64,000 nt of DNA from Nitrospirota bacterium (GCA_029261195.1 JAJDBU010000036.1:6087-70086); one strand, 5' to 3'; positions 17,717 to 63,117 are shown, counted from the first letter of the stretch. The notes: generated from the sequence alone by a model not told the origin. Numbers and translations are program-made.

Positions 17717-17769
17717 TATTTAATTAAGAGAATATCCATAAAAAAAGAAGGGATTTTCCTTGTTCTGTA

Positions 17770-23975: not shown

Positions 23976-24254
23976 ATGACAAAAAGTAAACTTATCGAGG
24001 AAATTTCGAAATCAGTTTCTAATGATGCTCTCAATGACAAGTCGATTGAATCAATTGTCTCAGGCGCTTTTACGACAATTGGGGAAACGATTAAGAAAAC
24101 CGGTCGGTTCAGTTATCCGGGCTTCGGAACATTTACCGTAACAAATCGGTCCGCCCGAAAGGGTCGAAATCCTAGGACGGGGGAGGCGATTGATATCAAG
24201 GCTTCAAAGTCAATTAAGTTCAAACCAGCACCTGCGTTGAAGGACAATTTGTAA
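23976..24254 (+). CDS. HU/IHF-family DNA-binding protein
   Basis: 92 aa. MTKSKLIEEISK...GFGTFTVTNRSARKGRNPRTGEAIDIKASKSIKFKPAPALKD is the canonical HU beta-arm region. Confidence 0.85.
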   Translation: MTKSKLIEEISKSVSNDALNDKSIESIVSGAFTTIGETIKKTGRFSYPGFGTFTVTNRSARKGRNPRTGEAIDIKASKSIKFKPAPALKDNL

Positions 24255-24376
24255 CAAAGACGAGAACCCTTAATTTATCAAAACACTGATTTTTCTTGAC
24301 CTCTTTTCATGACTCCATTAATGTTATGTGACATGAAAGAATAATACATGACATTAAAACTGCGAGTATCTTTAAG

Positions 24377-24568
24377 ATGGCTAAAGGAAATAGCGGTCGA
24401 ATCGTTATCGAGATCGATCCTGAATTAAAGCAAGAACTTTACGAGGCACTTGGTGTCAAAGAACTTAACTTGAAGCAGTGGTTCTTGAGCCATGTCAATC
24501 AGCTTTTAGCAGAAAGGCAGCCCTCTTTGCCTATGTTCAAATCGCAAGAATTGAGCAAGAGATCTTAA
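24377..24568 (+). CDS. Small ribbon-helix-helix-like protein, first gene of the Ssp-like operon
   Basis: 63 aa. The pattern is a beta strand (RIVIEID), a helix (PELKQELYEAL), a turn and a second helix (KQWFLSHVNQLLAE). Its stop is 3 nt before the ATG of the DUF4007 gene. Confidence 0.45.
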   Translation: MAKGNSGRIVIEIDPELKQELYEALGVKELNLKQWFLSHVNQLLAERQPSLPMFKSQELSKRS

Positions 24569-24571
24569 GCC

Positions 24572-25492
24572 ATGAAATTCAACCCTAATAAAGCTGCATT
24601 TGGACGGCATGAAACGTTCGCGCTGCGGTATAGCTGGCTAACGAAAGGCTATCAAGCCTTGGGGCATGATTCAAAGGTGTTTTCATCCGACAATGCCACG
24701 GTTACGCTTGGCGTCGGGAAAAATATGGTCAACGCCATCCGGTATTGGCTTCTTGCCGCGCGTTTAATTGAGGCGGCTCCAGAAGGGCTAAAACCAACCG
24801 AACTGGGGGGAAAGATTTTTGGAAATAAGGGCTTCGACCCTTATTTGGAGGACGAAGGGACGATCTGGTTGATTCATTGGCTGATCGCAACAAATCCGGA
24901 ACAGGCAACGAGTTGGTACTGGTTTTTTAATTATTTTCACAAGGCCGAATTCACGGCGGGAGAAGTGGCGACTTCACTCTTTGAATTTGCCAAACAGAAA
25001 ATTAAATCCAAGTTTTCGGCAAGCACGGTCAAACAGGACGCATCCATCGTCTTGCGCATGTATGCGCGTTCGAGGGGCAATACCCGCACCCCGATTGAAG
25101 AGGCCCTTGATTCTCCCCTTTCTCTACTGAACCTGATTTCCCAAGCTGAGGGCGGACGGACTTATTTTTCGCCTCCGGCAGAACGCGAAGCACTGCCTAC
25201 CGGAATCTTTGGTTTTGCAGTAGCAGAGTTGTTTCGTGTTATGGATGTCCGAGAACTTCCAATCCAAGATCTGATGTATGCAAAGAACACTTACCCCTCA
25301 CCCGGAGCCGTGTTCCGCCTGACCGAAAATGGACTGATTACAAAGCTCGAAAAAATGATTCATCTCCTTCCGGGTATTTTTGAAATCCGAGAGACGGCAG
25401 GCATCCATCAACTTTACCTACTTGAGGAGGTTGACCCTACACATTTTTTGGAAGCCCATTATATTGAACAATGCGAGGCAGAAGCAGCATGA
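24572..25492 (+). CDS. sspB: DUF4007-family protein (SspB-like, phosphorothioation nickase family)
   Basis: 306 aa. The N-terminal FGRHETFALRYSWLTKGY matches my memory of the DUF4007 signature. Gene order is DUF4007, large ATPase, PAPS-reductase-like, as in sspBCD. Confidence 0.6.
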   Translation: MKFNPNKAAFGRHETFALRYSWLTKGYQALGHDSKVFSSDNATVTLGVGKNMVNAIRYWLLAARLIEAAPEGLKPTELGGKIFGNKGFDPYLEDEGTIWLIHWLIATNPEQATSWYWFFNYFHKAEFTAGEVATSLFEFAKQKIKSKFSASTVKQDASIVLRMYARSRGNTRTPIEEALDSPLSLLNLISQAEGGRTYFSPPAEREALPTGIFGFAVAELFRVMDVRELPIQDLMYAKNTYPSPGAVFRLTENGLITKLEKMIHLLPGIFEIRETAGIHQLYLLEEVDPTHFLEAHYIEQCEAEAA

Positions 25493-28400
25493 GCCTAATC
25501 GATAAGGTTCGGGTCAATACCCACTACACACGGTCTATTAATCTCATCCGTGATGCCGATTCGCTGCCTGTCATTGAATCCTATATTCCAACCTCGCGTG
25601 CCTTGCGGACTTTTGGCGTCATACAAGAATCCCTCAAGGCCAAGGAAAGTCCCCGTGCCTGGTCATTAGTCGGACCTTATGGCTCGGGGAAGTCCTCCTT
25701 TGCACTCTTCCTCGCTCATCTGCTCCAACACCCAGACTTGGAAAGTACAAAAACAGCACACAATATTCTAAAGAAAAGTGACCCAGTCCTAGCAAAACAA
25801 CTCATCAAATTAACGAAAAAATCGGAAGGTTACTGTACGGTCTTACTCACCGGAAGTCCCGAATCGCTGGGCCGCCGAATAGTTAAAAGTCTCAACGAAA
25901 AGGCAAAAGAAATTTTCTCGCATCGCAGAGGACGGCGTCACAAAATTCTTGCGAAATTAGATGAACTCGTAAATAAACAGGAAGAACCTTCCACGACTGA
26001 AGTGCTTGTATGCGTCACTGAACTCCAAGATGCCATCGCACATATCGGCTATGCGGGCTTGCTGATTGTGATTGATGAATTGGGGAAATTTCTTGAATAT
26101 GAGGCACGTCACTCCGACAGTCATAATATCTTTTTGCTGCAAGATCTTGCCGAACATGCGCTTAGCTCCCACACCGCACCGTTCTCCCTCGTTGTTATGA
26201 TGCATCAGGCCTTCGAGCAATATGCACGTGGCTTGGGTGAAATCCTTAAAAACGAATGGGCCAAGGTGCAGGGGCGCTTTGAAAGCATCCCCTTTCTTGA
26301 AGCGACTGAACAGGTCTTGCGGGTCGTCGCAAGTGCCATCGAACATCGGTTTAGTACGCATGAAACAGAAAAAATCGAAAAATACGCAAAAAAAACAGCC
26401 CGTATTTTTGGCAAAGCGAAGGCGATCCCCGGAACAATGGATGAAGACACTGCTGCGAATTTGTTTCTCCGCTGCTATCCCTTGCATCCGGTCACGGTGC
26501 TACTGCTTCCCATTCTCTGCCAAAAAGTGGCGCAGAATGAGAGAACCCTCTTTAGTTATCTTGGCAGCCGGGAAACAAACGGTTTCCAAGACGCATTGCA
26601 GCGATGCACGAAAGTCGGGGACTGGATTCTCCCTTGGGAGATCTATGAGTACTTTATTCTCAGTCAGCCCGCCATGCTCTCCGATCACGCAACACGCCGC
26701 CGGTGGGCAGAAGTCGTTACAGCAATAGAACGCCTCGGAGATGCTCCAGATCATGAAGGGCAACTACTAAAAGCGGTGGGCTTGTTAAATATTGTTGGTG
26801 CTCAGGGGAATTTCAAGGCATCGAAAGAAATTGTTGAACTCTGTCTACCCACAAAAAAGGCCGTTTCGGAAATACTCAAAGCGCTGGATCGAAAATCTCT
26901 GATTCAATATCGTAAGTTCAGCGCCGAGTATCGGGTTTGGCAGGGAAGTGATTTTGAACTTGATACACACGTCGAGGAAGAACGAAGTAAGCTCGGTCGA
27001 TTTTCTCTTGCAGAAAAATTGAACAGCCGACACCCTCTTTTGCCGATTGTGGCCCGCCGCCATACCATCGAAAAAGGGGCTTTACGATATTTTACCCCGA
27101 TATTTGCCGATGCCGATTCATACCGACAGCTTTCGGAACGGGATGATCAGGCACGGCTCATTTTTTTCCTGTCTGAGAATAAAGAGGATGAGCAGTGCTT
27201 TCATGAATCCGTCCGTGACCATTTCTCTGATCTTGATATTGTCGCGCTCTGTGACAATGGCGAACAACTCCGTGAAACAGTGGGAGAAGTCCTGGCCTTG
27301 GAAGAGGTGCTGAAAAATTCTCAAGCGCTCAATTCCGATCCGGTTGCACAGCGCGGATTCAAAGACCGATTTGCCGCAACTCAAGCAAAAAAAGATGAAT
27401 TGCTTGCACGTTTAACCGGCGAACCGACACGGTCTCATTGGTATTGGAAGTCGAGCCGTCTCATGATTACAAGTAAAAGGGCATTGCAAAAAGAATTTTC
27501 ACGGGTTTTAGATGAGATCTATTACGCGACACCCATTATCAAAAATGAATTGATCAATCGAGATAAACCTTCGGCTCAGGCAAATGCAGCACGGAATAAA
27601 TTGGTCATCGCCATGTTAAATAACGAAGCTAAGGAAGATCTTGATTTTAAAAAGTTTCCGGCGGAAAAGGCCCTCTATCGTGCGGTCTTGAGAGAAACCC
27701 GACTGCATGTGCAGGGGAAAGATGGAACGTGGCAATTTCAGAGTTTTACCATTCAATCAGAATCAGACCCGTGCAACCTGCGCCATGTCTGGCAACGCAT
27801 TGAGGCATTTCTCGACGGGACAGAGCAAAAACCTCAGTCCCTTATTGAACTGAATCACGAATTGCTTGCCCCGCCCTATGGCGTAAAGGCGGGAGTCTTA
27901 CCCGTTCTTTACCTCACTGCCATGATAGCTAATCAAGAAGAGTTAGCGGTTTACGAAAATCGACGCTACTCCCCTTATCTTACCGAAGAACAAGTCGAAC
28001 GATTTATAAAACGCCCCGACGAATTTACTCTGCAACGCTTTCGAATCAGCGGTTTGAACCACTCGATTTTTCAGGAATATTCCAAGACCTTGTTCGGTGA
28101 TGAGAAAGGCCGTTCTCTTTTATCTATCGCGCGGCCCATTGCTACATTTATCGGCGAGTTGCCGGAATATACAAAAACGACGAAACGGGGACTTTCAAAA
28201 GAAGCCCAAGCTGTTCGAGATGCCTTTAAATTGGCCTTATCCCCCGTACAGCTTTTAATGGAAGATATTCCAAGTGCTTTAGGGATTGACCTGAAAAAAG
28301 CGCGTCAGGACGGTGAGGAAGTTAAGTCACTTTCTAATCGATTGACCGAAGCCCTCCGGGAATTAAAATACTGTTTAACCGGATTGCAGGAAGAAATGCG

Positions 28401-28995
28401 GACTCTGCTAGCGCAGGCCTTTGCATTGGATAAAGAAAGCACGGTTTCAGAATTACGGCTCACTCTCTATGGGCGCTGCGCAGGGTTAGACAGCTACACG
28501 ATTGATCGAGACGGGCAACGCGCCTTTATTCTACGCCTGATCAACAAGTCCGGAAGCGATGCACAGTGGTTCAACAACATCCTGATGTTTCTTGGGCATA
28601 AGTCCTTGGAAAAATGGACTGACACTGACCGGGATACTGCGGAATACCGTTTATCAGAATATACCCGGAAATTGAATGACCTCGAAAAACTCCGCATCCA
28701 TTACGATTCTCTAGATCACAAACCCAATAATGACTTTGAAATTTATCTACTTCGGAGTATAAAGAAGGGTGCTCCTGATTACGATGAAATCGTTGCCGTG
28801 GATAAAAAGCGTCACGATACGATTTCCACCATAAAATCTGAAATCAGGGAACGCCTCAAGACACTCGGTGATCATGACTTAGAACTTGCCGCCCTCGCGG
28901 AAGTCGTCGATGAAGTCTTAGCTGAGTCTCACGAAAATACCAGTAAAAATATCGAAACAGTCAAAGAAGGCCGAAGGCTGCGCAATATCAATTGA
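25489..28995 (+). CDS. sspC: Large P-loop ATPase (SspC-like / DUF499-BrxC-like)
   Basis: This is ORF 25471..28995 trimmed to ATG 25489, which forms an ATGA overlap with the upstream stop. Walker A is LVGPYGSGKSSFALFL and Walker B is LLIVIDELGKFLEY. The product is 1168 aa. Confidence 0.55.
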   Translation: MSLIDKVRVNTHYTRSINLIRDADSLPVIESYIPTSRALRTFGVIQESLKAKESPRAWSLVGPYGSGKSSFALFLAHLLQHPDLESTKTAHNILKKSDPVLAKQLIKLTKKSEGYCTVLLTGSPESLGRRIVKSLNEKAKEIFSHRRGRRHKILAKLDELVNKQEEPSTTEVLVCVTELQDAIAHIGYAGLLIVIDELGKFLEYEARHSDSHNIFLLQDLAEHALSSHTAPFSLVVMMHQAFEQYARGLGEILKNEWAKVQGRFESIPFLEATEQVLRVVASAIEHRFSTHETEKIEKYAKKTARIFGKAKAIPGTMDEDTAANLFLRCYPLHPVTVLLLPILCQKVAQNERTLFSYLGSRETNGFQDALQRCTKVGDWILPWEIYEYFILSQPAMLSDHATRRRWAEVVTAIERLGDAPDHEGQLLKAVGLLNIVGAQGNFKASKEIVELCLPTKKAVSEILKALDRKSLIQYRKFSAEYRVWQGSDFELDTHVEEERSKLGRFSLAEKLNSRHPLLPIVARRHTIEKGALRYFTPIFADADSYRQLSERDDQARLIFFLSENKEDEQCFHESVRDHFSDLDIVALCDNGEQLRETVGEVLALEEVLKNSQALNSDPVAQRGFKDRFAATQAKKDELLARLTGEPTRSHWYWKSSRLMITSKRALQKEFSRVLDEIYYATPIIKNELINRDKPSAQANAARNKLVIAMLNNEAKEDLDFKKFPAEKALYRAVLRETRLHVQGKDGTWQFQSFTIQSESDPCNLRHVWQRIEAFLDGTEQKPQSLIELNHELLAPPYGVKAGVLPVLYLTAMIANQEELAVYENRRYSPYLTEEQVERFIKRPDEFTLQRFRISGLNHSIFQEYSKTLFGDEKGRSLLSIARPIATFIGELPEYTKTTKRGLSKEAQAVRDAFKLALSPVQLLMEDIPSALGIDLKKARQDGEEVKSLSNRLTEALRELKYCLTGLQEEMRTLLAQAFALDKESTVSELRLTLYGRCAGLDSYTIDRDGQRAFILRLINKSGSDAQWFNNILMFLGHKSLEKWTDTDRDTAEYRLSEYTRKLNDLEKLRIHYDSLDHKPNNDFEIYLLRSIKKGAPDYDEIVAVDKKRHDTISTIKSEIRERLKTLGDHDLELAALAEVVDEVLAESHENTSKNIETVKEGRRLRNIN

Positions 28996-29005
28996 GGTAA
29001 CCCGA

Positions 29006-29863
29006 ATGAAGTGGCACGAACTCGCACTCAGTGAGGATAAAAACACACGTCATGTACTCGGACTTTCCGGCGGTAAAGACAGCACGGCTCTCGCCATCTA
29101 TATCAGAGATCACCATCCGGAAATTTCAGAAAAAATGGAGTATTTTTTCTGCGACACCGGCGCGGAGCTTGAGGAGGTTTATGAAATTCTCGATAAACTC
29201 GAAGCTTATTTAGGAAAAGAGATTACACGCTTGAGCAGCGGAAAACCTTTTGAGCATTGGCTGAAAATGCACGATAACTACCTACCTTCCCCTCGCCAGC
29301 GTTGGTGTACATTAACGATGAAAATCAAACCCTTTGAAAAGTTTGTCGGCGATGATCCTGTCATTAGCTATATCGGTATTCGTGCAGACGAAAATAGGGA
29401 AGGATACATCAGTAAAAAACCGACTATCAAAGCGCTATTTCCTTTTGTTGAAGATGGCATTGTCAGAGAGGATGTTTTTCAAACACTGGAAAACACCATC
29501 GGTATTCCCAAATATTACGAATGGCGGAGCCGCTCAGGATGCTATTTCTGCTTCTTTCAGCGGCAAGACGAATGGCTGGGTTTGAAGAGGAGACATCCCG
29601 AGCGTTTTGAAGAAGCAAAACGAATTGAGCGTGAAGTCTCGCAAAAGAAATTTGATTGGTCTAAAACAGAGGTCAAAGAATGCGGGCAGGGCTATACCTG
29701 GCATCAGTCGGGGACGCTTGATGAAATTGTGGATCGAGCCGAACAGAAAGAGGACGTTCCCACTCTTTCAAAGAAAAAAGAAGTACGGAAATGGCAGGAT
29801 GTGCTTAAAAGTGAGTTAGATGATGACCCTGAAGATCAGGCATGTTTGATATGTAGTCTTTAG
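29006..29863 (+). CDS. sspD: PAPS-reductase/DndC-like PP-loop ATP pyrophosphatase (SspD-like)
   Basis: 285 aa. The PP-loop is LGLSGGKDSTALAIY. It has a Cys cluster (RSGCYFCFFQ) and a C-terminal CLICS. A GAGG RBS precedes the start. Confidence 0.75.
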   Translation: MKWHELALSEDKNTRHVLGLSGGKDSTALAIYIRDHHPEISEKMEYFFCDTGAELEEVYEILDKLEAYLGKEITRLSSGKPFEHWLKMHDNYLPSPRQRWCTLTMKIKPFEKFVGDDPVISYIGIRADENREGYISKKPTIKALFPFVEDGIVREDVFQTLENTIGIPKYYEWRSRSGCYFCFFQRQDEWLGLKRRHPERFEEAKRIEREVSQKKFDWSKTEVKECGQGYTWHQSGTLDEIVDRAEQKEDVPTLSKKKEVRKWQDVLKSELDDDPEDQACLICSL

Positions 29864-30193
29864 CGACTATGAAATTTTGTGTTGTATTTAGATTACACAC
29901 AAGAGATAGACTCACCATTACTGAAACCTTCTCACATTTCACATCAGACTTCCCTCAACTTGAAGGAAGGGACTTGCATGCAAGAATTATTAACTCGTCA
30001 ATTATCTAGACCGGTGCAGGCTTAGTAAAGGTAACCACTTGGACTTAGATTTCTGCTCTATTTTTTCGTAGCTGAGGTTCAATACCCCGCTCCCCGGAGC
30101 GTAAAAATTCCGCTTCGCTTTTGATACCCCATTGCGTGCTGGGAGGTAGTTCATTTCCGTGTTAATAGGAACTCAAGAACATATTGGATAGCC

Positions 30194-31999
30194 ATGGACT
30201 CTGCATTTTTTAAACTCTTAGCGGCATATGCTCCAACCTCCCAAAACAAAGCGTCCTATGACGAACACGTTTCCAAATATGCTAAACGTTTATGCGTCGA
30301 CGAAATTAATATTGACAATGGGCTTTTTTCTAAGCTCTATGAATGTTTCATAAAGCAGCCAAGATCTATCATCCTCTCCGGCTCGGCAGGCGATGGAAAA
30401 ACCTACCTTTTGCGCAAGACCTATGAAAAAATAGAAGGAGAGCAAACAAACTGGGGCAATACCTATATACCTAAAATAAACTATGGTGATTATCAAATAC
30501 ATTTCATTAAGGACTTTACTGAAATAACGAGTCAAGATAAGCTGGAGACCTTAGAAGGCCTGTATGAATCAATCTATGAAAACTCTAATCAACTTTACAT
30601 TATCGCAGCGAATGATGGCATCTTAACAGACACTCTTCGTAATGCATTAGAAACAGAGCATACTAAACATTTCGATAAGCTCCTAAAACTTATTGAAAAC
30701 CATATTGGTGATACACATAAATTAGAAGACAATTTGATTCTCCTTGATCTCAGTCAGACCTCATCAGCTAAAAACTTCGAGCTTCTTCTCAAAGCTATTC
30801 TTGACGCATCTGACCTCTATGAGTCTGATTGCCCAAGTTTGATAAATCCAGCAACGTTTTGCCCCATACATACTAACATCGCACTGTTAAAAAAAGAGTA
30901 CATTCAAAAGCAACTACTCAGCATTATTCGAAGTTGTGATCTGAATTACAATCACATCACCCTTCGAAAATTATTCATGCTTATCGCCAATATGATACTT
31001 GGCAACCAAGGTAAAAAAAGGGTGTTTACCGGTTGTCAGGAAGCCATAGAATATTATTGCGGCCCCATAGACAGGATGGAAGCTTCTTTTTATAACAATA
31101 TCTTCGGAGACAATCTTTCACGAAGCAAGCAAGAAAAAAGTCCGTTTAAAGAGTTGTTAGAACTTCGTATAGGGTATGAAACAACTAACAATATTGATAA
31201 CTTTATTTTGTATGGGGATATTCAAGCCCAAGAGCTTCACACCAAACAACTATCAAATCCATTTCTTGATTTCAACGCATTTAATAATGCAAAAGATGGT
31301 TACCTTGAAAAGGGTGATAGCACTCAAATTAAAAAATATTTAGTTTTTTTGCGCAGGCACCTGTTTTTCAATTTTGATGAAAATGTTGTTTGGAATTACA
31401 AACCTATTAACGCTAATGACTTAATGACCTATGAGCATGCAAGAGAGTTTTATATCGATGTCATCACTCCGTTGAAGAACAAACAAAACATCTCAAAACG
31501 AGTTGTTAAACATCTTGCACTAGGGCTCAACCGTATTTTTCTTGGTGAGCTAGTTAGTAAGGAGGGTAGTGACAGACTCTACATTGGATCATCTCTCACC
31601 AGTACCATGTCTAGGCTCTCATCTGAGGTTATTGCTCGTATTGAGTTTAATCAAAAACATCTCAATCAAGGCATTCACTTAACCCTTACAGAGGGATTTG
31701 ATAGCGAATATTGCAAAGTTAATCTAGAGATCGAGTTTTCAGGTCAACGCATTGCCACACTTGAACTTGATTTACATATGTTTGAATTTTTGCGTCGAAT
31801 TGCTGAAGGGATTTTGCCCACGAGTTTTTCTGTCGAATACTACGAACGTGTACTAACATTCAAGTCACAAATCGTGAATTACATTTTGCAAACGGAAGAG
31901 TTGGATGGGTCATTTAATCTTTTTTCTCTAAATGACACGGAAGGAACACTGAATTTTAATGAGTTTCAAATAGAGAATGGCAATGTTCGAGAAAGCTGA
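30194..31999 (+). CDS. P-loop ATPase, DptF/SspF-like first gene of a three-gene PT-dependent restriction-type module
   Basis: 601 aa with Walker A ILSGSAGDGKTYLL. It is low GC. The size and order pattern of ~600/~500/~1700 aa resembles dptFGH. Confidence 0.5.
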   Translation: MDSAFFKLLAAYAPTSQNKASYDEHVSKYAKRLCVDEINIDNGLFSKLYECFIKQPRSIILSGSAGDGKTYLLRKTYEKIEGEQTNWGNTYIPKINYGDYQIHFIKDFTEITSQDKLETLEGLYESIYENSNQLYIIAANDGILTDTLRNALETEHTKHFDKLLKLIENHIGDTHKLEDNLILLDLSQTSSAKNFELLLKAILDASDLYESDCPSLINPATFCPIHTNIALLKKEYIQKQLLSIIRSCDLNYNHITLRKLFMLIANMILGNQGKKRVFTGCQEAIEYYCGPIDRMEASFYNNIFGDNLSRSKQEKSPFKELLELRIGYETTNNIDNFILYGDIQAQELHTKQLSNPFLDFNAFNNAKDGYLEKGDSTQIKKYLVFLRRHLFFNFDENVVWNYKPINANDLMTYEHAREFYIDVITPLKNKQNISKRVVKHLALGLNRIFLGELVSKEGSDRLYIGSSLTSTMSRLSSEVIARIEFNQKHLNQGIHLTLTEGFDSEYCKVNLEIEFSGQRIATLELDLHMFEFLRRIAEGILPTSFSVEYYERVLTFKSQIVNYILQTEELDGSFNLFSLNDTEGTLNFNEFQIENGNVRES

Positions 32000-33503
32000 G
32001 ATATTACAAACACACTACAAATTTTTTCAAGACCCCTTCTTACAGGAACTTATCTGGTTCCACCGAATTATAGCTAATCAGGATAAAGAACTCCTTGTTC
32101 TGGAGTTTTTGAATGTTTGTGCCAGTCATGCTAGTGATGGCAGGCTGTTTGATAAAAAACTCACAACAGTGAAGTACCGCAAAGATATTCAACTACGAAG
32201 CATTCTATATAATTTCCCTGAATTAGAAGGTATCTATAAGTCTCATGACGACGAAGAAAAAAAGTGGGACAGTATTATATCAACGTTGCAAAAAAAACTA
32301 GAAACGCCTTTCGACTATCGTTATCTAAAAAAGCGTTTTGATTCAATTAAGATATTTTTTTTATCTGTATCGCTGCTGCGAAAAGCGTCGTTAGGTGTCA
32401 GCACCTCAAGAAACTGGACGAGTAAATTTATTTTTCCGTTTTCTTTTAAGACGCTCTTAATCGCTTTAGATAATCGTAACGAATCATTCACGGTGGGGCG
32501 TCAATTTTTTTCAAGAGGCGGCGAAGTCCTTTATCTAATGGTTGCTCGAGGGAAAAATGTTGATAAACTCAAAATACTTATGCTCGATGTTTTTCAAAAT
32601 CCATCTCAAAACAAACGCTGGAACGAATTAGTTTCTGTATTCAGAGGTACATCTGAACCCACAAAAGATCCGACGAGAATAGGTTTCTTAAGAATCGATT
32701 CTCATGAAGTGTATGATCAACTAGTCGATGATTTGATCGCTTTGTTTGAATCCAATATTCCAAACAACGACTTATTTCATCATTTTGCATCAATTTCCGC
32801 TTACTATATGATTCATTTTATTTTAACCGTTTCTTCTCAAATTATTAAAACAAGTTTCGTCAAAGGTGAAAATCATAAGGTAGTATATCCCGTTGAGCTT
32901 TTAGCTCCACGAAGCGATCATGTTAGAAGATCTTCTCGGCAAATTTATAAAATCAATGAAGAACTCCCCCTCAAAGCACTAAAGGAAACCCTAAAAAACT
33001 ACTTTTATGATTTGAGAGGCATTGTTGACAAAGACGTTCTACTTCTAAAGCTTAGAAATGAGCTTAACTATGCTAATGATGATAATGATCAAACAGATGA
33101 CATTGATCTTCAGCAACTCGAAAAAGAGGCCTGGGCGGCAATCTATGCAAAGGCTAAAAACGAACTTCAGCCTATTCATAGGGTTCTGTTAAAGGGGGCA
33201 GGACTTGCAAGTGTAAAAAAAACCAATAGCTATCGTTACCTTGCAAGTGATGAATGGTTGAAAACTCTAGTGCTCATCAACGTGCCTGAACGTAAGCCTT
33301 TTCATGAATTTGTTGACATCCTTTATGAAAGATATGGCTTCATTATTTCCAATAAACATTCATCCCTATTGATTGAGTCATATTCAGATAACGATTATAA
33401 GAAGAATGAGTCTAGGCTATTTGAGCGACTGCGTGCATTAGGCTTGCTTGAGAGTAAATCTGATGGCTATGCGTATGTTTTGAATCGCTATGGAAGAAAA
33501 TAG
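31977..33503 (+). CDS. DptG/SspG-like middle component (no recognisable motif)
   Basis: 508 aa. It overlaps the upstream gene by 23 nt and ends 5 nt before the next gene. The assignment rests on position only. Confidence 0.4.
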   Translation: MAMFEKAEILQTHYKFFQDPFLQELIWFHRIIANQDKELLVLEFLNVCASHASDGRLFDKKLTTVKYRKDIQLRSILYNFPELEGIYKSHDDEEKKWDSIISTLQKKLETPFDYRYLKKRFDSIKIFFLSVSLLRKASLGVSTSRNWTSKFIFPFSFKTLLIALDNRNESFTVGRQFFSRGGEVLYLMVARGKNVDKLKILMLDVFQNPSQNKRWNELVSVFRGTSEPTKDPTRIGFLRIDSHEVYDQLVDDLIALFESNIPNNDLFHHFASISAYYMIHFILTVSSQIIKTSFVKGENHKVVYPVELLAPRSDHVRRSSRQIYKINEELPLKALKETLKNYFYDLRGIVDKDVLLLKLRNELNYANDDNDQTDDIDLQQLEKEAWAAIYAKAKNELQPIHRVLLKGAGLASVKKTNSYRYLASDEWLKTLVLINVPERKPFHEFVDILYERYGFIISNKHSSLLIESYSDNDYKKNESRLFERLRALGLLESKSDGYAYVLNRYGRK

Positions 33504-33508
33504 AAGAC

Positions 33509-36500
33509 ATGAATTTTATTGCTAGTTACCTCGTAGAAAACATTATCAAAGAAGCGCAAATATCTTCAACTGAAGGGACCAGTGGAAAGTTCATTCTTAC
33601 CAATTATCCACAAGAGGTCATTGGTGAGATAATTAATTACTTCCTCACTCATCCACACCTAAATATCCTCCTCGTTATTGATAGAAAATTTCCTATTGAT
33701 CTGAAGACTACAAATATTGTGTATGCCACTCATGAAGTGATGGCACAATATCGTAATGAAAACGTCCAACATACAGATATTGATCTTGATACGATCACCT
33801 ATTTAGTATTCATTACCAATGAGACGATTGATACGCTAAACGATATCAATACGCTCACTCCAGACGATATAGCGCGGGATTTCGAATCTGTTGTCGCCTC
33901 TATTAAAAATCGACTTTTGGATAATGAAAGTAAGGAAAAACTTCGCAAGGTATGCCGAGTGTTCTTAAAAGAAGTAGATGAAATTGACCCTTTTCAAATG
34001 GAGCAGTTTATACAGGCTGTTTTGAGCCATTTAAATAATGGCAATCCAATTGAAGATGCTATGGGGCTTTCTATCAATGCCTTAAACTCTTTTAGATGCC
34101 GCAAATGCTTCGAATCGCTTAAAAAAAATGATTCCATCAAAAATATCAAAAAGATCGCACAGTCTTACAAGGCAATAGCTGTTGCATTGTTCAAAAGAGT
34201 TGGTAACAAAACGCTGGACGAAGAAGCCTTAAACGAAAAGTTCAAAGAAAATATAACAGAGTTTGATTTACTAGACCCTCAAAAGCAAAAGCTTCTAAAG
34301 CAGTTTATTCACGCTGACTACAGAGAAATTGTCCAACTTAGGGAGCAGTTTAGTACGCTAGATTGGCAAAAAGATCACGTATACCGATTATTTGAAAAAA
34401 CCCGCTCCGATACCTCAAAAAAGCTTGGCGCAGAAACCGTTGAATTACTTGAATTATCCGATATTGAACTGGCAGATTACGAGAAAAATAGTTTGCTGCA
34501 ATATGACGACCTTAAACCCAGCGAACGTACAGGCTTGCGAGATACACTAGAACCCATTTATAAAGATCATAAACCCCTCATTGAAAACAATAAGGCTCTG
34601 CGCAATAAGTGGGACAAGTTTTTATATCCCTCCCAAACGAAATCTGATAACTTTATTATCGCTCTCCTTGATACCATAAAAAAATTAAAATCTGATGTTA
34701 CATATATCGATTCTATCGAAGTGACGCTCAAGCACACTCAGACCGCTGCAATCGTCCGAAATTACTCAAAACATCCCATTAACTATCTTCACAAGCGTTA
34801 CTCTGTTCTTAATCGAATATCTAATAAAATTGTGTTTGATCTAAAATTTATTGTAGATATCGATGAGCGATTAAAAAAAGAAAAACTATCTCCAGATGAT
34901 AAAAAGTTTCGTAAAGGCAGTTTATCAAAATCTGCTAATGAGCTACATTTCATTGTTTATGCTAAAAACTCCTCTGGTAAAAGGATTGCAAAACGAAAAT
35001 TGATCTGGAACTATAATCCAAATACCGTATTAAATGGTTATAAAGAAGATGCGGAAGTTGTTCAATATCATTTGAAAAACAAGAGACTGCATTCCAGTAT
35101 TGTATACCGGGCAAGTAGCTCGGAAAAAGGCGAGAAAAAGCCTCTTTCATTACATGACTTTTCATCCCTTGAAAGTCGAGGAAAAATATCCGGGCACCGG
35201 CTTTTTCAAAAAAAGAATGAGCGAGGGTTTTCTAGCAATGAGATCAAAGCGTCCGCAAAGGCAATTTTAGATCCCGATGATTACACAGACTTTCAAACAC
35301 TATTTTCTGAATATCTAAAACAATATTCTTGGTTGCTTGGACAATTAGACATTCAAAAAAATGTAGAAAAATCTGGCTTTGACTTTGATGGCGTTGAAAA
35401 GCTAAGTCAAATATATGTAAATCTCTGTCAATTTCTTTACAACAATAGTGATAATGACACTTTTAAGGCTGAAGTGATTGAGCCATTCTTATCGCTCATA
35501 ACAGTGCGGGTAGGCCAAGAAGATACCGTTATTATTCCATCGTATCATCCAATGCGTCTCATTTCATTTTTCGTTAAGCTCAAACATGTATTTGAGTTTA
35601 TGGATGCGTACATAGTAACTCCCGATCTGGCAAGAATTAAAGAAGATCTATTTTTTAATGATCTAGAGCAAAGTTGCAATACACCGTATTACCCAGAGAT
35701 ATTTAGACTTTTTGAGGCTGAAGGCAGTGAGCGAAGCCTTTTGCATATTTCTGAAGCGTGTGATGACTACACCATATTGGAACCTGTACAAAGGTTTCTT
35801 GATAGTGGTCAGAGTACGGACTCATCATCACAAAGTATTATTTTAAGTAAGGTGATTGAGAATTATTTGGATCTCAATAGCCACAAGCAAAGCAGCCTAA
35901 AAATCTTACTACACGCAGTCAATAATTATGAGCTCCCTGTAAAATTTATGAAGAAGTTAATGTCTCTTGATTTTACATCCAAAGAGAATAACTTTGAAAT
36001 TTACCTCAATGATGTAGATGCATCGCATATTAGAAAGATGTACCGCGCATTCTTAATTAGTCAGAACGCGCAAGGGGCTGAAGAGGCGCTTGAGTACAAC
36101 GAGGTCTCTTTCTTATCAAATATTCGTCTCAATGCCTTTGATCAAAGTTTTAAACAACTCGACAATGTCAATGATCAAATAAACATCGCATTTCTAAATG
36201 ATTTTGTCTCTTCAAAAGCAACGCTGGAATTTAGAAAGCAACTGCTTGAAGAATCTTATCCACTTTTTGATTTTCATCCTACTATGTGGTCAAAGCGTAA
36301 GTATATGAGCGAGCAAGAAAGCAATGTTGGGAAATATCTCGTATCTCCTGCGAAAAGTGATTTGACCAGCGCATTTTATAATTTGCTCTATCTAACAATG
36401 AGTACACACCGTGATGACTATAAAGATAAAATCCCTACACTTAAGGTTGATCGCAATAACAAGCGTTTACAGGCAGATCTCGAAGCCATCCACAAGCGAA

Positions 36501-38692
36501 CAGACTGGGTGGTCAATCTTGATGCTCTATTGGATAAAAAAATATTAGAAGAGTTTGGGGCCAACGTTATTAAATATCGCAAAGCCCGTCATATCGATCG
36601 TAATCTTGTAATCTCATCAAAATCAAATCCCATACTACTAAAAAACCATTTAGTTAAAAAGTTTCAAGACTTTGGTGTAGATGCCAGTATTATCAAAATA
36701 GCTGTTGATAATATTATCAAATCCGCTAATGAACTATCAGGAGACATACTGTTAAAAGCTATTGGTCGTGGCTGCTTTGCTAATGAGATGCTAGGTCTTG
36801 TCCTTACAAAAACCATTTTGGAAGGATGCTCCCCTCATGAAAATATTCTGATATTCATTGACGATTATGCCGATTGGTTTTTGTCTAGCATAAGCTCCGA
36901 AGAGAAACTGTTGGTCCCGCAAAACAATGTGTTAGCGGATATTCTTTTTATTACTCCGGTGTTCCATGAGGGAAACCTTTCAAACATATATATCGATGTT
37001 GTAGAAGCAAAATTTTGTAATGAAACTAATCGAGGAAATCTAGCTAAAAAATCTTTGCAACAAACGAAAAACTCATTTTTTCAAATCAAAAAAGTGTTTG
37101 ATGACAATGCCTACGCTGATAAGGATTATTGGCGAGCAAAAATATCTGATTTAATAGTTGAAAACCACCATAAAAGCTTTGTCGGTAATTTGACATCTGA
37201 AGATATTAGAAATGCTATTCGACGTGATAAAACGATACGATTTATTGTCCGTGGCATGTCATTTGTGTTTGTTTATGACCATGAAGAAGATTATCAACCT
37301 TCGGCAAATAGGGAAGATGTAGAGCAATATATTATTGGTTCCAAATCTATAGTTACAATGCTTGAAAAAATACCGCTATTCGACTCATCAATGTCTTGTT
37401 TATCATTACCTACATTTGAGTTGCAATCTCCCCAACAAAAAGAGGCAGTGTCATCTACGACTTACATTGAAGAAACCCCGAAAAAAAACATAGGTCTAAA
37501 TTCAATTGAGAGTACAAATACAGTCCAAACGGACATTGTTAGTATCTCTGTGAAAAAGAGTGATAAACAATTTGTTGATGTTAATGCAAAAATTGTTTCG
37601 TTACAAAAAATGGAAGAAGAAAAGTCTGAAGGTGAGGCTATAAGTCTCGCAGTGAAAAAAGTAGTTATGTACCACAAGTATCGAGCAAAGATACGGAGCT
37701 ATTTATTCACTCCCAACGCAGTCAGAATATCACTGGAGCCAGAGCTCGGTTGGAATGAGAATATTTTCTATAAAATGATAAATGATTTTCTTGCTGTTGA
37801 AAAATTGAGGTTATTACGCGTGGAGGTTGTTCCTGGAGCTTACGACCTAATATTTGAAAGGAAAGAGCGACAAATTATTTCATATGAGGACTGCTTAGAA
37901 GACAGAGAGATAAGTGATGGGGCAGGTAATACAAAAATCCTGCTTGGCCGTAATGAGCAAAATAACCAAGTAGTCTACTATAACCTCGATAGTGAAGATC
38001 CTCATGCACTCATTGGAGGCATGACAAAAAGTGGTAAGAGTGTTCTATTGAATGTTTTTATTGTCGATTTAATGTGCACAAATACAGTTGATGAATTACT
38101 ATTGATTTTGGTAGACCCAAAACAAGTTGAGTTTACACGATATAAGGGCATTCCATACTTAGATCCCGAAGGGATAGTAACGGGAAAAAAAATAGCAATT
38201 AGAAAGCTTAATGATTTAGTCGTTGAAATGGATAGACGTTTTCTGCTCTTTGCGGAAAGTGGGGTCAATGAACTCAATAAGTACAATAAAAAAGTTCAAA
38301 CTAAAATCCCTAGAATCGTTCTCATTTTTGATGAATTTGCCGACTGGATGCTTGATGACGAATTTAAGAGGGATGCTAGTAATGCAGTTCAAAGCCTTTC
38401 TGGCAAAGCTCGAGCTGCTGGTATACATTTGATAGTCAGCACTCAACGTCCAGATAATTCCGTTGTTGTGCCTATCTTGCGAGCTAATTTAGGAGCGAAA
38501 TTCGCCTTACGTGTTGACAGCGAAAAGAACTCCGCCATCATTCTTGATGAGCCAGGGGCTGAAAAACTTTTAGGGTACGGACATATGATAGCTAAGTTCG
38601 CAGGCAAGAAACAGTATATTCAAACAGCATTCGTTTCTGATGGTTATATTGACTCCATACTCGATAAGATTAAAAGGGCGGACTCAAAATAG
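33509..38692 (+). CDS. Giant DptH/SspH-like protein with C-terminal FtsK/HerA-type ATPase domain
   Basis: 1727 aa. The C-terminal domain reads HALIGGMTKSGKSVLLNVFIV (Walker A)...LILVDPKQVEFTRY...RIVLIFDEFADWM (Walker B)...AAGIHLIVSTQRPDNSVV...ANLGAKFALRV. Its stop TAG (38690..38692) coincides with the left IS30 inverted repeat. Confidence 0.55.
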   Translation: MNFIASYLVENIIKEAQISSTEGTSGKFILTNYPQEVIGEIINYFLTHPHLNILLVIDRKFPIDLKTTNIVYATHEVMAQYRNENVQHTDIDLDTITYLVFITNETIDTLNDINTLTPDDIARDFESVVASIKNRLLDNESKEKLRKVCRVFLKEVDEIDPFQMEQFIQAVLSHLNNGNPIEDAMGLSINALNSFRCRKCFESLKKNDSIKNIKKIAQSYKAIAVALFKRVGNKTLDEEALNEKFKENITEFDLLDPQKQKLLKQFIHADYREIVQLREQFSTLDWQKDHVYRLFEKTRSDTSKKLGAETVELLELSDIELADYEKNSLLQYDDLKPSERTGLRDTLEPIYKDHKPLIENNKALRNKWDKFLYPSQTKSDNFIIALLDTIKKLKSDVTYIDSIEVTLKHTQTAAIVRNYSKHPINYLHKRYSVLNRISNKIVFDLKFIVDIDERLKKEKLSPDDKKFRKGSLSKSANELHFIVYAKNSSGKRIAKRKLIWNYNPNTVLNGYKEDAEVVQYHLKNKRLHSSIVYRASSSEKGEKKPLSLHDFSSLESRGKISGHRLFQKKNERGFSSNEIKASAKAILDPDDYTDFQTLFSEYLKQYSWLLGQLDIQKNVEKSGFDFDGVEKLSQIYVNLCQFLYNNSDNDTFKAEVIEPFLSLITVRVGQEDTVIIPSYHPMRLISFFVKLKHVFEFMDAYIVTPDLARIKEDLFFNDLEQSCNTPYYPEIFRLFEAEGSERSLLHISEACDDYTILEPVQRFLDSGQSTDSSSQSIILSKVIENYLDLNSHKQSSLKILLHAVNNYELPVKFMKKLMSLDFTSKENNFEIYLNDVDASHIRKMYRAFLISQNAQGAEEALEYNEVSFLSNIRLNAFDQSFKQLDNVNDQINIAFLNDFVSSKATLEFRKQLLEESYPLFDFHPTMWSKRKYMSEQESNVGKYLVSPAKSDLTSAFYNLLYLTMSTHRDDYKDKIPTLKVDRNNKRLQADLEAIHKRTDWVVNLDALLDKKILEEFGANVIKYRKARHIDRNLVISSKSNPILLKNHLVKKFQDFGVDASIIKIAVDNIIKSANELSGDILLKAIGRGCFANEMLGLVLTKTILEGCSPHENILIFIDDYADWFLSSISSEEKLLVPQNNVLADILFITPVFHEGNLSNIYIDVVEAKFCNETNRGNLAKKSLQQTKNSFFQIKKVFDDNAYADKDYWRAKISDLIVENHHKSFVGNLTSEDIRNAIRRDKTIRFIVRGMSFVFVYDHEEDYQPSANREDVEQYIIGSKSIVTMLEKIPLFDSSMSCLSLPTFELQSPQQKEAVSSTTYIEETPKKNIGLNSIESTNTVQTDIVSISVKKSDKQFVDVNAKIVSLQKMEEEKSEGEAISLAVKKVVMYHKYRAKIRSYLFTPNAVRISLEPELGWNENIFYKMINDFLAVEKLRLLRVEVVPGAYDLIFERKERQIISYEDCLEDREISDGAGNTKILLGRNEQNNQVVYYNLDSEDPHALIGGMTKSGKSVLLNVFIVDLMCTNTVDELLLILVDPKQVEFTRYKGIPYLDPEGIVTGKKIAIRKLNDLVVEMDRRFLLFAESGVNELNKYNKKVQTKIPRIVLIFDEFADWMLDDEFKRDASNAVQSLSGKARAAGIHLIVSTQRPDNSVVVPILRANLGAKFALRVDSEKNSAIILDEPGAEKLLGYGHMIAKFAGKKQYIQTAFVSDGYIDSILDKIKRADSK

Positions 38693-39569
38693 AAGTGCAA
38701 CGCTTTACGGAGGTAAAGTGTTGCCATGGGAAAAAGATACAGTCATTTGAGTTGTGAAGATCGGACATTGATCCAGTTGAGTCTTGAGAGGAAGTGTTCA
38801 ATGAGCGAGATAGGCAGAAGCCTGGAAAGGCCCACAAGTACGATCATCCGGGAGTTGAAGCGTAACGGTTGGAAAAAGAAGCAGTCCCGTCAAAGAGGGC
38901 GACCTCCAATAGCAGGAGGTTACCGGGCAGTTATCGCTCATCAACAGGCGAAGGAAAGGTCTATCAAGGGCAGAAAACCAAAACGCTTGATTGAAGGGAG
39001 TGTTCTTTGGAACTCGGTTGACACACTGTTGCGAGAATTTAAGTCTCCGGAACAAATAGCGGGTATGCTCAAGCGTATCTACCCCGATGACAAGGGACTT
39101 CAAGTGAGCCATGAGACCATCTACACAGCGATTTATGCCATGCCTCGGGGCGTCTTGCGGAAAGATCTGATTGCCTGTTTGCGTCAGTCTCGTAAGAGTC
39201 GAAGGCCCCGCGCTCGTGGCAATGATCGTCGGGGGAAGATTCCCAACATGGTCAGTATCCATGAGCGACCTGCCGAGATAGAGGACCGTCTTGTTCCCGG
39301 TCACTGGGAAGGTGACTTGATTAAAGGGGCAAAGAACGCCTCTTCGGTTGGCACGCTGGTGGAGCGCACCAGCCTATTCGTCACCCTCGTAAAAATGGAC
39401 AGTGCAGGTGCTTTAGATGCTCAGAAGGGCTTTGCACATGTCTTGAATCGCATGGGAGCTAAACACCAGGCCAAGAAAAACCTTGAACTTCAGATGCCCT
39501 GTCGAAAAATTCATGCCTGAGTCTTTCGACTTTTATAAACATTTTAGCTATGTTGCACTTCGACCTTGA
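38685..39569 (+). mobile_element. IS30-family insertion sequence derivative with internal deletion (non-autonomous)
   Basis: The terminal inverted-repeat core is GAAGTGCAAC (38692..38701) paired with GTTGCACTTC (39552..39561), with partial matches extending outward ~7 nt. It encloses a truncated transposase. The exact ends are uncertain by a few nt. Confidence 0.7.
38726..39569 (+). pseudogene. IS30-family transposase, catalytic core deleted
   Basis: The N-terminal HTH regions and the first catalytic Asp are intact (HETIYTAIY...PGHWEGDLI...VERTSLFV). After ...FAHVLNR the reading frame changes. A different frame reads IAWELNTRPRKTLNFRCPVEKFMPESFDFYKHFSYVALRP*, which is the IS30 C-terminal tail. 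The roughly 130-150 aa that carry the second D and the E are therefore absent. The junction is at ~39445-39455. Confidence 0.75.
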
Positions 39570-39759
39570 ATCCGCCAAGATAAATAATTATTGAAGAGCT
39601 GAAATAAACATAGTACTACGGGTAGTGGGGGTACATGAGCATGCTGTTGGAAAGTGTAATTTCACATTTTCAGGTCGGCTTTTTCAGGGTTTTCAGATAT
39701 AAGGGAACACTATTTCTCCTTTTGAAGCCCTAATTTCTTAGACTTTTCTCGCGTGAAAG

Positions 39760-41628: not shown

Positions 41629-41749
41629 TAGATTAAGTCATCCATTCTCATGTCCCAGACTTGGGGTGAATGTGTAATGGCTGTAACGCAGAAGAAGCGA
41701 GATGAGATAATTTAAGAACGGGGTGAAAAAATACAAACCCGAGGGAAAT

Positions 41750-41992
41750 CTACTTGTTTGTCGAGAGATTTTTGTCCAAGGCAAAATTTTCAGGGCTTTC
41801 CTGATAAGCGTTGATGCAGGCGAGACAGATACAAGATTTTCCTTTAGAGCTTTCTGGAATTAACTCCTGTAGTGCCGTAGGAATCGTTATTTCAAAACAC
41901 CAACAAGGCTCTTTACTATAAGCCATGCAGTTATTTTCAGCTCTGCAAAACGGGCAAAGATAGGCATCAACTGACTCTTCTATTGGTTCCAT
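41750..41992 (-). CDS. Cysteine-rich CWC family protein
   Basis: 80 aa. The sequence reads CPFCRAENNCMAYSKEPCWCFEI...CICLACINAY. Confidence 0.7.
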   Translation of the reverse strand: MEPIEESVDAYLCPFCRAENNCMAYSKEPCWCFEITIPTALQELIPESSKGKSCICLACINAYQESPENFALDKNLSTNK

Positions 41993-42322
41993 TAATGGCC
42001 TAACGCTCCTTTGAGCGGGGTGCTGGATTCGCTAAGCGAAACACCCGATTTTTTCAGATTAGCTTGTACCCGTATATTCTACAAAAATTGAAAAGAAGTC
42101 AAAGAATTGAATCTTTTATCTTGGCCTCCTGACGACAGAATATTTCTTGTCCTGCAAACCGATGGGGAGAGAGTAATTCTATTATCAGACTTAAATAATT
42201 GTCCTTGCTAACAAAGCTTTAGTTTGTTTTTTGGATTGTGTTCCACAAAAAACTGAATGTGTCTCCTAATATTGAGTTCGCCGCTGGGAGGATCTGATTC
42301 AGTCTTTCGGTGAGGAGGGCGC

Positions 42323-42964
42323 TCACGGGCTGACCTGGATACAACGCAGGATATAATGTTCGTCCTGCTTGAGAAGGTGTTGTGTGATTTCTTCGGAAAT
42401 GTGGACGGTCTGGAGTTTGCGCGTTCGGGTATTTGAAATGTAGCCACCCTGGGCCAGGATCTGGAAGACAGAGGACCGCAGGCGAGCAATGGTCGATTCG
42501 CTCCACTCAGACATTTTCGGATCACGGTTTTGGCAATCTGAAATATAACCTTCCCACAATCTTACTGAAAGGTCGGGTGCAAACAGCCGGTATTGTTCCC
42601 GAAGCACGGAATCTAGAAAGTCTCCAAGTAAGGCACTGTGTTTTACGGCGGCAGCAAGACAGGCCTGCGTGGCTAGTGACATTGAGCCATTTCGAATAAA
42701 GCGCCACAGATCCGGAGTCATCAGTGATAGGCGGTTTTTCAGGAGTCTGGCGAGGCGCTTGGCCGTTGCAGGACTTCTGGTCTGTAGGACGTTCTCCGTT
42801 TGGATGGCGTGCATCCATTCCCGCTCCCCGGTTTGCCGAAGGAGAAGATCAGCAATGATCCGGCTTTCGTGGATTTTCAGAGATCCGGCGGTAAGGTCTG
42901 CATTGTACCTCCCTGCACCCTGAATACTGTCGATTATTTTATTGGATACAAGGATCGGGATCAC
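42323..42964 (-). CDS. brxA: BrxA (DUF1819) family protein, orphan
   Basis: 213 aa. The segments YNADLTAGSLKIHESRIIADLLL...W..AI..ENVLQTRSPATAKRLARLLKNRL...AAAVKHSALLGDFL match my recollection of the BrxA/DUF1819 pattern. No brxC, pglX, pglZ or brxL is nearby. Confidence 0.6.
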   Translation of the reverse strand: MIPILVSNKIIDSIQGAGRYNADLTAGSLKIHESRIIADLLLRQTGEREWMHAIQTENVLQTRSPATAKRLARLLKNRLSLMTPDLWRFIRNGSMSLATQACLAAAVKHSALLGDFLDSVLREQYRLFAPDLSVRLWEGYISDCQNRDPKMSEWSESTIARLRSSVFQILAQGGYISNTRTRKLQTVHISEEITQHLLKQDEHYILRCIQVSP

Positions 42965-44423: not shown

Positions 44424-44532
44424 TGAGAATACTCATGTCTGGTAACGACCCAAAGCGGACATTAATAGGTCTTATCTTTTTAGTTTTTTTGGTTGAATAG
44501 TTAACAAAAATAGAGTTTTTTTAATTTTGCGC

Positions 44533-61243: not shown

Positions 61244-61245
61244 AT

Positions 61246-62645: not shown

Positions 62646-62668
62646 TTTTCCTCCTGACAAGTGAATGC

Positions 62669-63070: not shown

Positions 63071-63117
63071 TTGTGATCTCCATTGTTATTGTGGTGGAAC
63101 AAAATGACGGGAGGGCC

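Follow-up and report, generated by a model that had tools for sequence, protein, structure and literature searches.

We analysed a stretch of 64,000 nucleotides (nt) from a Nitrospirota bacterium (GCA_029261195.1, JAJDBU010000036.1:6087-70086), hereafter called the window, with a focus on positions 24377-38692 as counted from its first letter. A first-pass annotation, made from the sequence alone, had described this region as a phosphorothioate (PT) modification module of the Ssp type coupled to a three-gene restriction module. The map of open reading frames (ORFs) reproduces that description exactly and all six ssp ORFs are intact. An identical copy of the locus is also present in an independent read-set assembly. 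Families were assigned via the PADLOC hidden Markov models (HMMs), for which the six ssp matches cover nearly the whole profile.

The writer half comprises three genes on the plus strand. The first one, sspB (24572-25492), encodes a DUF4007 protein of 306 amino acids (aa) that matches the PADLOC SspB model over its full length (302 bits, E-value 9.6e-91) as well as Pfam DUF4007 (5e-82). It is followed by sspC (25489-28995), whose product of 1168 aa is a P-loop ATPase similar to BrxC. Its Walker A motif is intact (GPYGSGKS at residue 62), and the protein matches SspC with 1412 bits (E=0) over the profile positions 1-1063 of 1064. The length of 1168 aa refers to the ATG at 25489, which lies in an ATGA overlap of sspB and sspC (25489-25492), and an alternative start at 25471 extends the protein to 1174 aa. 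Finally, sspD (29006-29863) encodes a PP-loop enzyme of PAPS-reductase fold with 285 aa (PADLOC SspD 1e-101, 338 bits compared to 26 bits for DndC; Pfam PAPS_reduct 4e-9) and the motif SGGKDS at residues 21-26. That is, the ORF map and the PADLOC models SspB, SspC and SspD agree with the sspBCD order, the ATGA overlap and the SGGKDS enzyme proposed earlier. A megablast search with the 14.5-kb region returned no match in E. coli genomes or PLSDB plasmids, so the ssp loci of E. coli are not closely related to this one.

The effector half starts 330 nt after sspD and consists of three co-oriented genes on the plus strand that overlap or are 5 nt apart. Here, sspF (30194-31999) encodes a P-loop protein of 601 aa (PADLOC SspF 7e-113, 376 bits) with a Walker A motif GSAGDGKT at residue 63. 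The overlapping sspG (31977-33503, 508 aa) matches SspG (5e-96, 321 bits) besides a weak match to MAD7; its start is either 31977 or 31983, the second being taken from the public gene call in locus L016. The last gene, sspH (33509-38692), encodes a protein of 1727 aa (PADLOC SspH 8e-265, 880 bits) with a C-terminal FtsK/SpoIIIE-type motor (Pfam FtsK_SpoIIIE 1e-31; FtsK in the PDB 5e-41) and a Walker A motif GMTKSGKS at residue 1504, while PDB sequence searches returned nothing for SspF and SspG. With these scores, the trio does not fall into an unrelated family. No PADLOC model of Dpt or Dnd F, G or H matches any of the three proteins at E <= 1e-3. The initial label 'DptFGH/SspFGH-like' thus holds with regard to SspFGH, the P-loop first gene and the FtsK-type giant last gene, but is too loose in its Dnd/Dpt part because no significant identity exists between the sequences of SspFGH and DndFGH. 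It was correct that the partner is not sspE, i.e., no SspE or GmrSD_N match is found among the window proteins scanned.

A gene of sspA or iscS type had been reported as missing, which we also observe: none of the complete window ORFs that reach 175 aa and are not nested in another one matches Aminotran_5 or a cysteine desulfurase. This is the usual state for such loci. The Vibrio anguillarum FF-93 locus consists of sspBCD-sspFGH and its iscS was cloned separately (Wang et al., mBio 2021, PMC8092258), and the sspBCD genes of E. coli 3234/A function with the host IscS (PMC8092258). According to a 2026 survey, sspA can be adjacent, dispersed or replaced by iscS, and sspBCD represents the minimal system. 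In the public record of the Agrobacterium plasmid pAtK224b, sspA-B-C-D is convergent with sspFGH, so plasmid carriage of the combination is already in public data.

Relatives of the effector trio were collected by scanning a genome collection and metagenomes with SspH, which resulted in about 40 loci. The metagenome scan provided 29 of them, none closer than about 73-80% identity, and returned nothing when done with SspF. In L001-L010 and L024-L045, the SspF, SspG and SspH proteins are 60-77% identical to the window trio. Hosts are mainly Sulfurovum, Sulfurimonas, Sulfurospirillum and Arcobacter-type metagenome-assembled genomes (MAGs), with contigs of 24-41% guanine-cytosine (GC) content. Directly upstream of those trios we find sspC and sspD genes that are only 20-25% and 32-46% identical, respectively, to those of the window; among the loci of this FGH lineage with enough upstream flank, sspC/sspD are present in 19/19.

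The writer genes point elsewhere. The nearest SspC relatives are gammaproteobacterial, Sedimenticola, Thiodiazotropha and Methylococcales among them, and we compared six such loci (L018-L023) with the window. The closest one, L018, shows identities of 87/87/94% for SspB/C/D and has a convergent gene for an 811-aa protein of no firm family after sspD. For L019 (75/74/86%), sspD is followed by genes for a PbeD-like protein (dnd_assoc_4), PbeC, a 71-aa ORF and PbeA (PADLOC PbeC 7e-231, PbeA 4e-235). In L020 (72/62/74%) and L021 (67/59/69%), a DEAD helicase, an HATPase_c_3 protein and a PLD protein take this place, extended by a NERD-kinase in L020. L022 and L023 (72/62/76%) carry a second SspFGH lineage that is only 24-30% identical to the window trio and whose SspF is assigned by PADLOC (E=0) to a different SspF sub-model. 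The backbone of L019 is shared with the window, i.e., an HU-like protein (79% identity), a protein of family TIGR04096 (76%), an 80-aa Cys_rich_CWC ORF (69%) and a 1279-aa protein (85%). Within this backbone, the spacer, sspFGH and a defective IS30 element of the window sit where L019 has pbeABCD.

Since FGH and BCD are thus each closest to a different lineage, the two-way discordance of the identities strongly supports the earlier suggestion of a modular reassortment of the modification and restriction halves. We take it to show, from comparison of the loci, an exchange of cassettes at a fixed slot between sspD and the TIGR04096 gene. Such an exchange is functionally plausible because the heterologous SspBCD of E. 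coli 3234/A protects against the SspFGH of FF-93 (PMC8092258). Wang et al. had already noted that partners are scattered across the SspBCD tree and concluded on horizontal transfer (PMC8092258), so reassortment in general is not new and the window adds a coordinate-level example.

The discordance in identity comes with a step in base composition, which had served as part of the argument for reassortment in the first-pass annotation. The GC contents of sspB, sspC and sspD are 48.3, 46.8 and 44.3% (44-49% at third codon positions, GC3), compared to 36.9, 36.5 and 36.4% for sspF, sspG and sspH (GC3 33-36%). The drop of about 10 points is therefore real, but the step alone is not evidence of a swap, since it recurs with every kind of partner. 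Relative to the respective sspBCD, we observe 38 vs 47% for the Pbe genes, 37 vs 47% for the gene of the 811-aa protein, 38-39 vs 43-44% for the helicase/HATPase/PLD set and 38 vs 44% for the second FGH lineage. As every partner type is 4-10 points below its own sspBCD, we rejected the GC step as insufficient proof of a recent import. Within the Campylobacterota-type loci, the GC content of FGH closely follows that of the local BCD, from 24% to 41%.

Both edges of the slot can be located via the ends of homology. At the left junction, i.e., in the 330-nt spacer (29864-30193), DNA homology with L018 stops at 29897, which is 34 nt beyond the sspD stop, and similarity to sspF of the Campylobacterota type sets in at about 30205, such that 29898-30193 matches neither side. 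An Rfam scan returned nothing in the whole window, the spacer included. On the other side, the slot is limited by the TIGR04096 gene (39760-41628, minus strand), which runs convergently to sspH and marks the outer end of the slot. Between the IS30 element and the stop of this gene at 39760 lie about 180 nt with a low GC content of 38%. From these sequence comparisons, we place the left edge within 29898-30193, after sspD, and the right edge within 39580-39759, before the TIGR04096 gene.

The IS30-family element (38677-39576, plus strand) is defective. It spans 900 bp, shows 25-nt inverted repeats (38677-38701 and 39552-39576, 84% complementary) flanked by a 3-bp direct repeat AAG, and is internally deleted, i.e., the NCBIfam match transpos_IS30 (5e-49) covers only the profile positions 1-188 of 267 and the C-terminal tail of the transposase is found in another frame. 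The last four codons of sspH and its stop come from the left end of the element. When the latter is removed in silico, an SspH of 1723 aa ending with DKIKR* is restored, compared to 1727 aa at present. The element was also considered as the agent of the cassette swap. This was rejected since its own pair of inverted repeats and the 3-bp duplication mark a simple insertion, and low-GC sequence of the cassette type extends past it. That is, as a simple insertion, it post-dates the cassette.

Upstream of sspB, a 63-aa ORF (24377-24568, plus strand) is conserved, which we consider a putative autoregulator of sspBCD with a ribbon-helix-helix (RHH)-like fold. Its family has about 204 members, which are 63-67 aa long and free of Pfam domains, and shows 15 invariant columns in 35 sequences. 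Copies with 62-82% identity are located directly upstream of sspB or overlap it in L018 and L020-L023, while neither L019 nor any of the Campylobacterota-type loci compared has the ORF. The sequence reads RIVIEI, followed by a helix beginning with PELKQELY and by G-L-N-L-K before a second helix. The AlphaFold2 (AF2) monomer, which is of low confidence (predicted local distance difference test, pLDDT, of 60), has an extended N-terminus and then helices at residues 15-28 and 32-46. Pattern and model, as well as the tandem palindrome described below, are compatible with an RHH fold, in which a beta-strand and two helices form a dimer for the recognition of operator half-sites that occur repeatedly. 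The label 'RHH' given earlier is thus plausible with respect to the extended N-terminus and the two helices, but not proven as the protein has no Pfam match.

In front of this ORF, we find two operator-like boxes of the 14-bp palindrome ATGTTA-YR-TAACAT on the plus strand, namely 24321-24334 (one mismatch) and 24341-24354 (degenerate, three mismatches), which are located 56 and 36 nt before its ATG. Within 179 kb of ORF-carrying loci, 8/8 palindrome matches with at most two mismatches are positioned at -56/-58 or -37/-39 from the start of the small ORF, and L019 has neither ORF nor box. This fixed position suggests that the palindrome pair is probably an autoregulatory operator and that the small ORF and sspBCD form one autoregulated operon. 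The reappraisal from the Aravind lab states that Ssp has no cognate of DndE, a double-RHH protein. The 63-aa protein may have a DndE-like role, but the position of the operator favours transcriptional control. On its upstream side, the promoter region of the ssp genes is adjoined by a gene of the HU/IHF family (23976-24254, plus strand) that is 79% identical to the HU gene next to sspB in L019, where it has the opposite orientation.

We read the locus as an intact SspBCD-SspFGH system for PT modification and restriction that an F-type conjugative element carries as cargo in its defence island, and assign this reading a probability of about 0.85. The naming of both halves rests on the PADLOC scores and domains, since BREX and Dnd models are far weaker or do not match. 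By analogy to studied systems, SspB (DNA binding and nicking), SspC (ATPase) and SspD (PP-loop sulfurtransferase) would take sulfur mobilised by an IscS-type desulfurase of the host and place single-strand PT marks on the resident DNA, with 5'-C(ps)CA-3' being the motif of the studied systems. SspF (P-loop), SspG and SspH (FtsK-like translocase) would damage DNA without the PT pattern and block the replication of phage DNA. This corresponds to what is reported for FF-93 (PMC8092258), where C(ps)CA marks are set by SspBCD in combination with IscS. SspFGH, which needs all three of its genes, is harmful there to cells without PT, causes damage in non-PT DNA and represses the replication of phage DNA. 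From the comparison of loci, sspBCD would be transcribed together with the 63-aa RHH-like protein from a promoter region bearing the two palindromes, and sspFGH would be a separate unit behind the 330-nt spacer. Concerning its origin, the comparison shows that the writer half (small ORF, sspBCD and TIGR04096) is of a gammaproteobacterial lineage in which the stretch from sspD to TIGR04096 is a variable slot. In the window, this slot is filled by an sspFGH cassette with relatives in low-GC Campylobacterota-type genomes, and the IS30 element entered the 3' end of sspH later.

Some observations weigh against this reading. The sulfur donor, i.e., a host IscS-type desulfurase, is assumed by analogy. 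Scans for sigma-70 promoters and terminators within 23.8-30.3 kb did not exceed the shuffle background, such that no mapped promoter is claimed for sspFGH. The 63-aa protein matches neither Pfam nor any PDB sequence and its AF2 model stays at the pLDDT given above, and the IS30 insertion alters the C-terminus of SspH by four residues. Furthermore, the best FGH relatives reach identities of only about 71-77%, so the donor lineage is not among the sampled ones, and the exchange may have run either way, with FGH taking the place of Pbe or, in L019, Pbe that of FGH.

Three other explanations have to be weighed. It is extremely improbable that the first block constitutes, or belongs to, a PAPS-reductase system similar to BREX type 4. 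Both kinds of system are homologous, i.e., BrxP corresponds to SspD/SspB and BrxC to SspC, and both make PT (PMC12914056). Also in favour are the secondary match of SspC to BrxC (458 bits), the weak ones of SspB and SspD to BrxP (21 and 34 bits) and a genuine BrxA-family gene 3.4 kb downstream. However, the bit scores of the Ssp HMMs are 3- to 14-fold higher than those of the BREX models, SspB and SspD are encoded by two genes and not fused into a BrxP, and, given a BREX type 4 core of brxPCZL, no PglZ/BrxZ or BrxL is found in the window ORFs scanned with Pfam. The block thus remains with Ssp, and neither BREX type 4 nor another PAPS-reductase system takes its place.

It is also unlikely, albeit somewhat less so, that the trio is a stand-alone counter-invader system uncoupled from sspBCD, with the latter serving another partner or an epigenetic role. 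In all 19/19 loci with enough flank, sspC/D lie directly upstream of the trio, whichever the BCD lineage, and SspFGH alone is toxic in experiments in which even heterologous SspBCD rescues (PMC8092258). This has to be set against the two halves being separate transcription units of different evolutionary history, a 2024 reappraisal in Nucleic Acids Research according to which DndFGH is commonly decoupled from DndABCDE, and the 84% of sspBCD loci with neither sspE nor sspFGH (PMC8092258). We hold it for very unlikely that the locus is a decaying remnant, with the inserted IS30 and a former, now lost partner of Pbe type as marks of inactivity. Although the last codons of sspH lie within the defective IS30, and TIGR04096, the CWC ORF and BrxA resemble leftovers of the arrangement seen in L019, the six ssp ORFs are of full length compared to their profiles with intact Walker A and PP-loop motifs, the insertion only replaces the context of the stop codon (1723 to 1727 aa), and the locus recurs identically in the independent read-set assembly.

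Among the known systems, SspBCD-SspFGH of FF-93 is of the same type. Compared by gene families, order and motifs (PMC8092258), it has the same six families in the same order, no sspA in the cluster, a Walker A motif in SspF and an FtsK/SpoIIIE-like region at the C-terminus of SspH. Different from FF-93, the window has the 63-aa RHH-like gene and palindrome before sspB, the convergent TIGR04096, CWC ORF and BrxA after the trio, halves of different lineages and the carriage on an F-type conjugative element. SspABCD-SspE, as known from V. cyclitrophicus FF75 and E. coli 3234/A, uses the same sspBCD writer, again without sspA in 3234/A, but its effector SspE is stimulated by PT, whereas the window has no SspE-like protein and carries an SspFGH that acts on non-PT DNA. 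DndABCDE-DndFGH (DptFGH) also combines a PT writer with a three-gene effector, a P-loop protein first and a translocase-like giant last, that is toxic without PT. Beside the missing sequence identity of the effectors, its writer differs, since Ssp uses SspB/SspC instead of DndD/DndE and its PT is single-stranded while that of Dnd is double-stranded. BREX type 4 likewise writes PT and has BrxA in common with the surroundings of the locus, and differs by the features discussed above. With regard to DndCDEA-PbeABCD, no pbe genes are found in the window, while L019, which is nearest to the window in its backbone, has PbeA, PbeC and dnd_assoc_4 in the slot of sspFGH. With the methylation-associated defence system MADS, the similarity is partial and weak (MAD7 for SspG; mad8 with 2e-18 for the C-terminus of SspH). 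Related effector parts thus occur beside a methylation-based writer, while the writer here is of PT type.

The system as such is known and found in its usual configuration, i.e., SspBCD-SspFGH, an unlinked desulfurase and the patchy pairing of writers and effectors were all published in 2021. The value of the locus is that of a concrete example, at the level of coordinates, for the exchange of effector cassettes at a fixed slot. More tentatively, and with odds that we see as somewhat below even, the small ORF, sspBCD and TIGR04096, possibly with the CWC ORF and BrxA, might represent a conserved frame of one gammaproteobacterial lineage of PT writers that combines a swappable slot for at least five unrelated cassettes with an RHH-like autoregulator and its operator at fixed position. 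The five cassettes would be the two SspFGH lineages, PbeABCD, the helicase/HATPase/PLD/NERD-kinase set and the 811-aa protein. If so, the control of writer expression could allow for a safe establishment after conjugative transfer. The locus also points to a conserved small putative regulator with its operator, a candidate accessory methyltransferase and candidate PT-dependent effectors in the sister slots, the last being of relevance given that about 84% of the sspBCD loci have no known partner (PMC8092258).

The sister slots themselves provide further details. In L019 (9060-21279 of GCA_029261165.1, JAJDBV010000001.1), sspBCD is paired with PbeABCD and TIGR04096. No description of an Ssp-Pbe pairing was found in the searchable literature, where Pbe is described together with Dnd writers. 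The cassettes of L020 (11069-17996) and L021 (14387-18843) encode a DEAD/ResIII helicase with weak similarity to PbeA, an HATPase_c_3 protein weakly similar to MzaB and a PLDc_2 protein weakly similar to DrmC, and the NERD-kinase of L020 is PglW/mad6-like; this is a candidate for a new PT-coupled effector set. Another candidate partner is the 811-aa protein of L018 (8167-10602, minus strand), which shows a sub-threshold HATPase_c_3 match only and belongs to no PADLOC or NCBIfam family. An extra gene for a 112-aa protein of no known family is located between sspG and sspH in L022 (14506-14844) and L023 (10589-10927). The Campylobacterota-type loci have additional genes between sspD and sspF. 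In L005 (4455-6669), these encode a protein of 427 aa similar to GmrSD_N/NsnA and a PD-T4-6-like Ser/Thr kinase of 314 aa, i.e., other defence genes are embedded inside the Ssp locus. Similar sspD-sspF gaps of 2-3.8 kb are observed in L001, L003 and L006-L010.

The protein at the right edge of the slot (622 aa) belongs to TIGR04096, 'DNA phosphorothioation-associated putative methyltransferase' (NCBIfam 5e-184, 612 bits, cutoff 150). Homologues with 66-76% identity occupy the same position in L019, L020, L022 and L023, and those in L013, L014, L021 and L045 are 36-37% identical. Across the sister loci, this identity follows the BCD half and not the partner. A PDB sequence search with the protein returned nothing, and searches of the literature on TIGR04096 and for more recent work on the mechanism of SspF/G/H gave nothing of use. 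Upstream on the same strand, we find the 80-aa Cys_rich_CWC ORF (41750-41992; Pfam 4e-14) in the same position as its L019 counterpart, and the BrxA-family gene (42323-42964; Pfam BrxA 4e-51, PADLOC BrxA 1.3e-76). Thus, within 39760-42964, BrxA, the CWC ORF and TIGR04096 share the minus strand without other BREX genes. The CWC ORF and BrxA may form one operon with TIGR04096, but it is uncertain whether the two belong to the Ssp system. The conservation among the loci suggests that the whole stretch could be an unrecognised accessory of this writer lineage.

The carriage on a conjugative element, as stated in the first-pass annotation, is confirmed by an F-type transfer region at 0.6-15.5 kb of the window, which encodes TraN, TraC, TraV, TraK, TraE, a TrbI-like protein, a coupling protein and a primase. 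The element is conjugative, and plasmid or integrative and conjugative element are both possible. The same annotation had asked how the transferred single strand escapes its own PT-sensing nuclease. This description does not apply to SspFGH: the characterised SspFGH damages non-PT DNA and PT protects, while SspE is the PT-sensing effector. Since SspFGH attacks DNA without PT, the puzzle concerns the chromosome of the recipient and not the incoming strand. The transferred strand should arrive with the PT marks of the donor, where PT fills only 10-15% of the sites. The hazard of conjugation would arise if sspFGH is expressed while the chromosome of the recipient is still unmodified, i.e., the ordinary establishment problem of restriction-modification (R-M) systems. 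It is plausible that separate transcription units and a dedicated regulator of the writer mitigate the cost of establishment.

Beside the Ssp locus, the cargo island comprises a Schlafen/AlbA_2 protein, a type I R-M system and a Lamassu system. The type I R-M region (16364-22940, minus strand) contains hsdS (17770-19131), hsdM (19131-20555) and hsdR (20556-22940). The Schlafen/AlbA_2 protein, a PADLOC candidate (PDC-S50), is encoded at 16364-17716 on the minus strand, and its gene together with hsdS forms another low-GC patch (35-38%). The Lamassu system (44527-48315, plus strand, GC 38-40%) is complete with LmuA (Cap4-type nuclease domain, 44527-45825), LmuC (45800-46378) and the SMC-like LmuB (46375-48315), and a truncated resolvase fragment (44067-44423) lies just upstream of it. 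Further downstream, a PRTRC-type cassette (59078-63948, minus strand) encodes a ThiF-like E1, a JAB/DUF2016 protein, Prok-E2_D and the PRTRC ParB. It is adjoined by the gene of the 1279-aa protein of no known family (55139-58978), whose identity of 85% to its counterpart in L019 implies that the elements of the window and of L019 are related.

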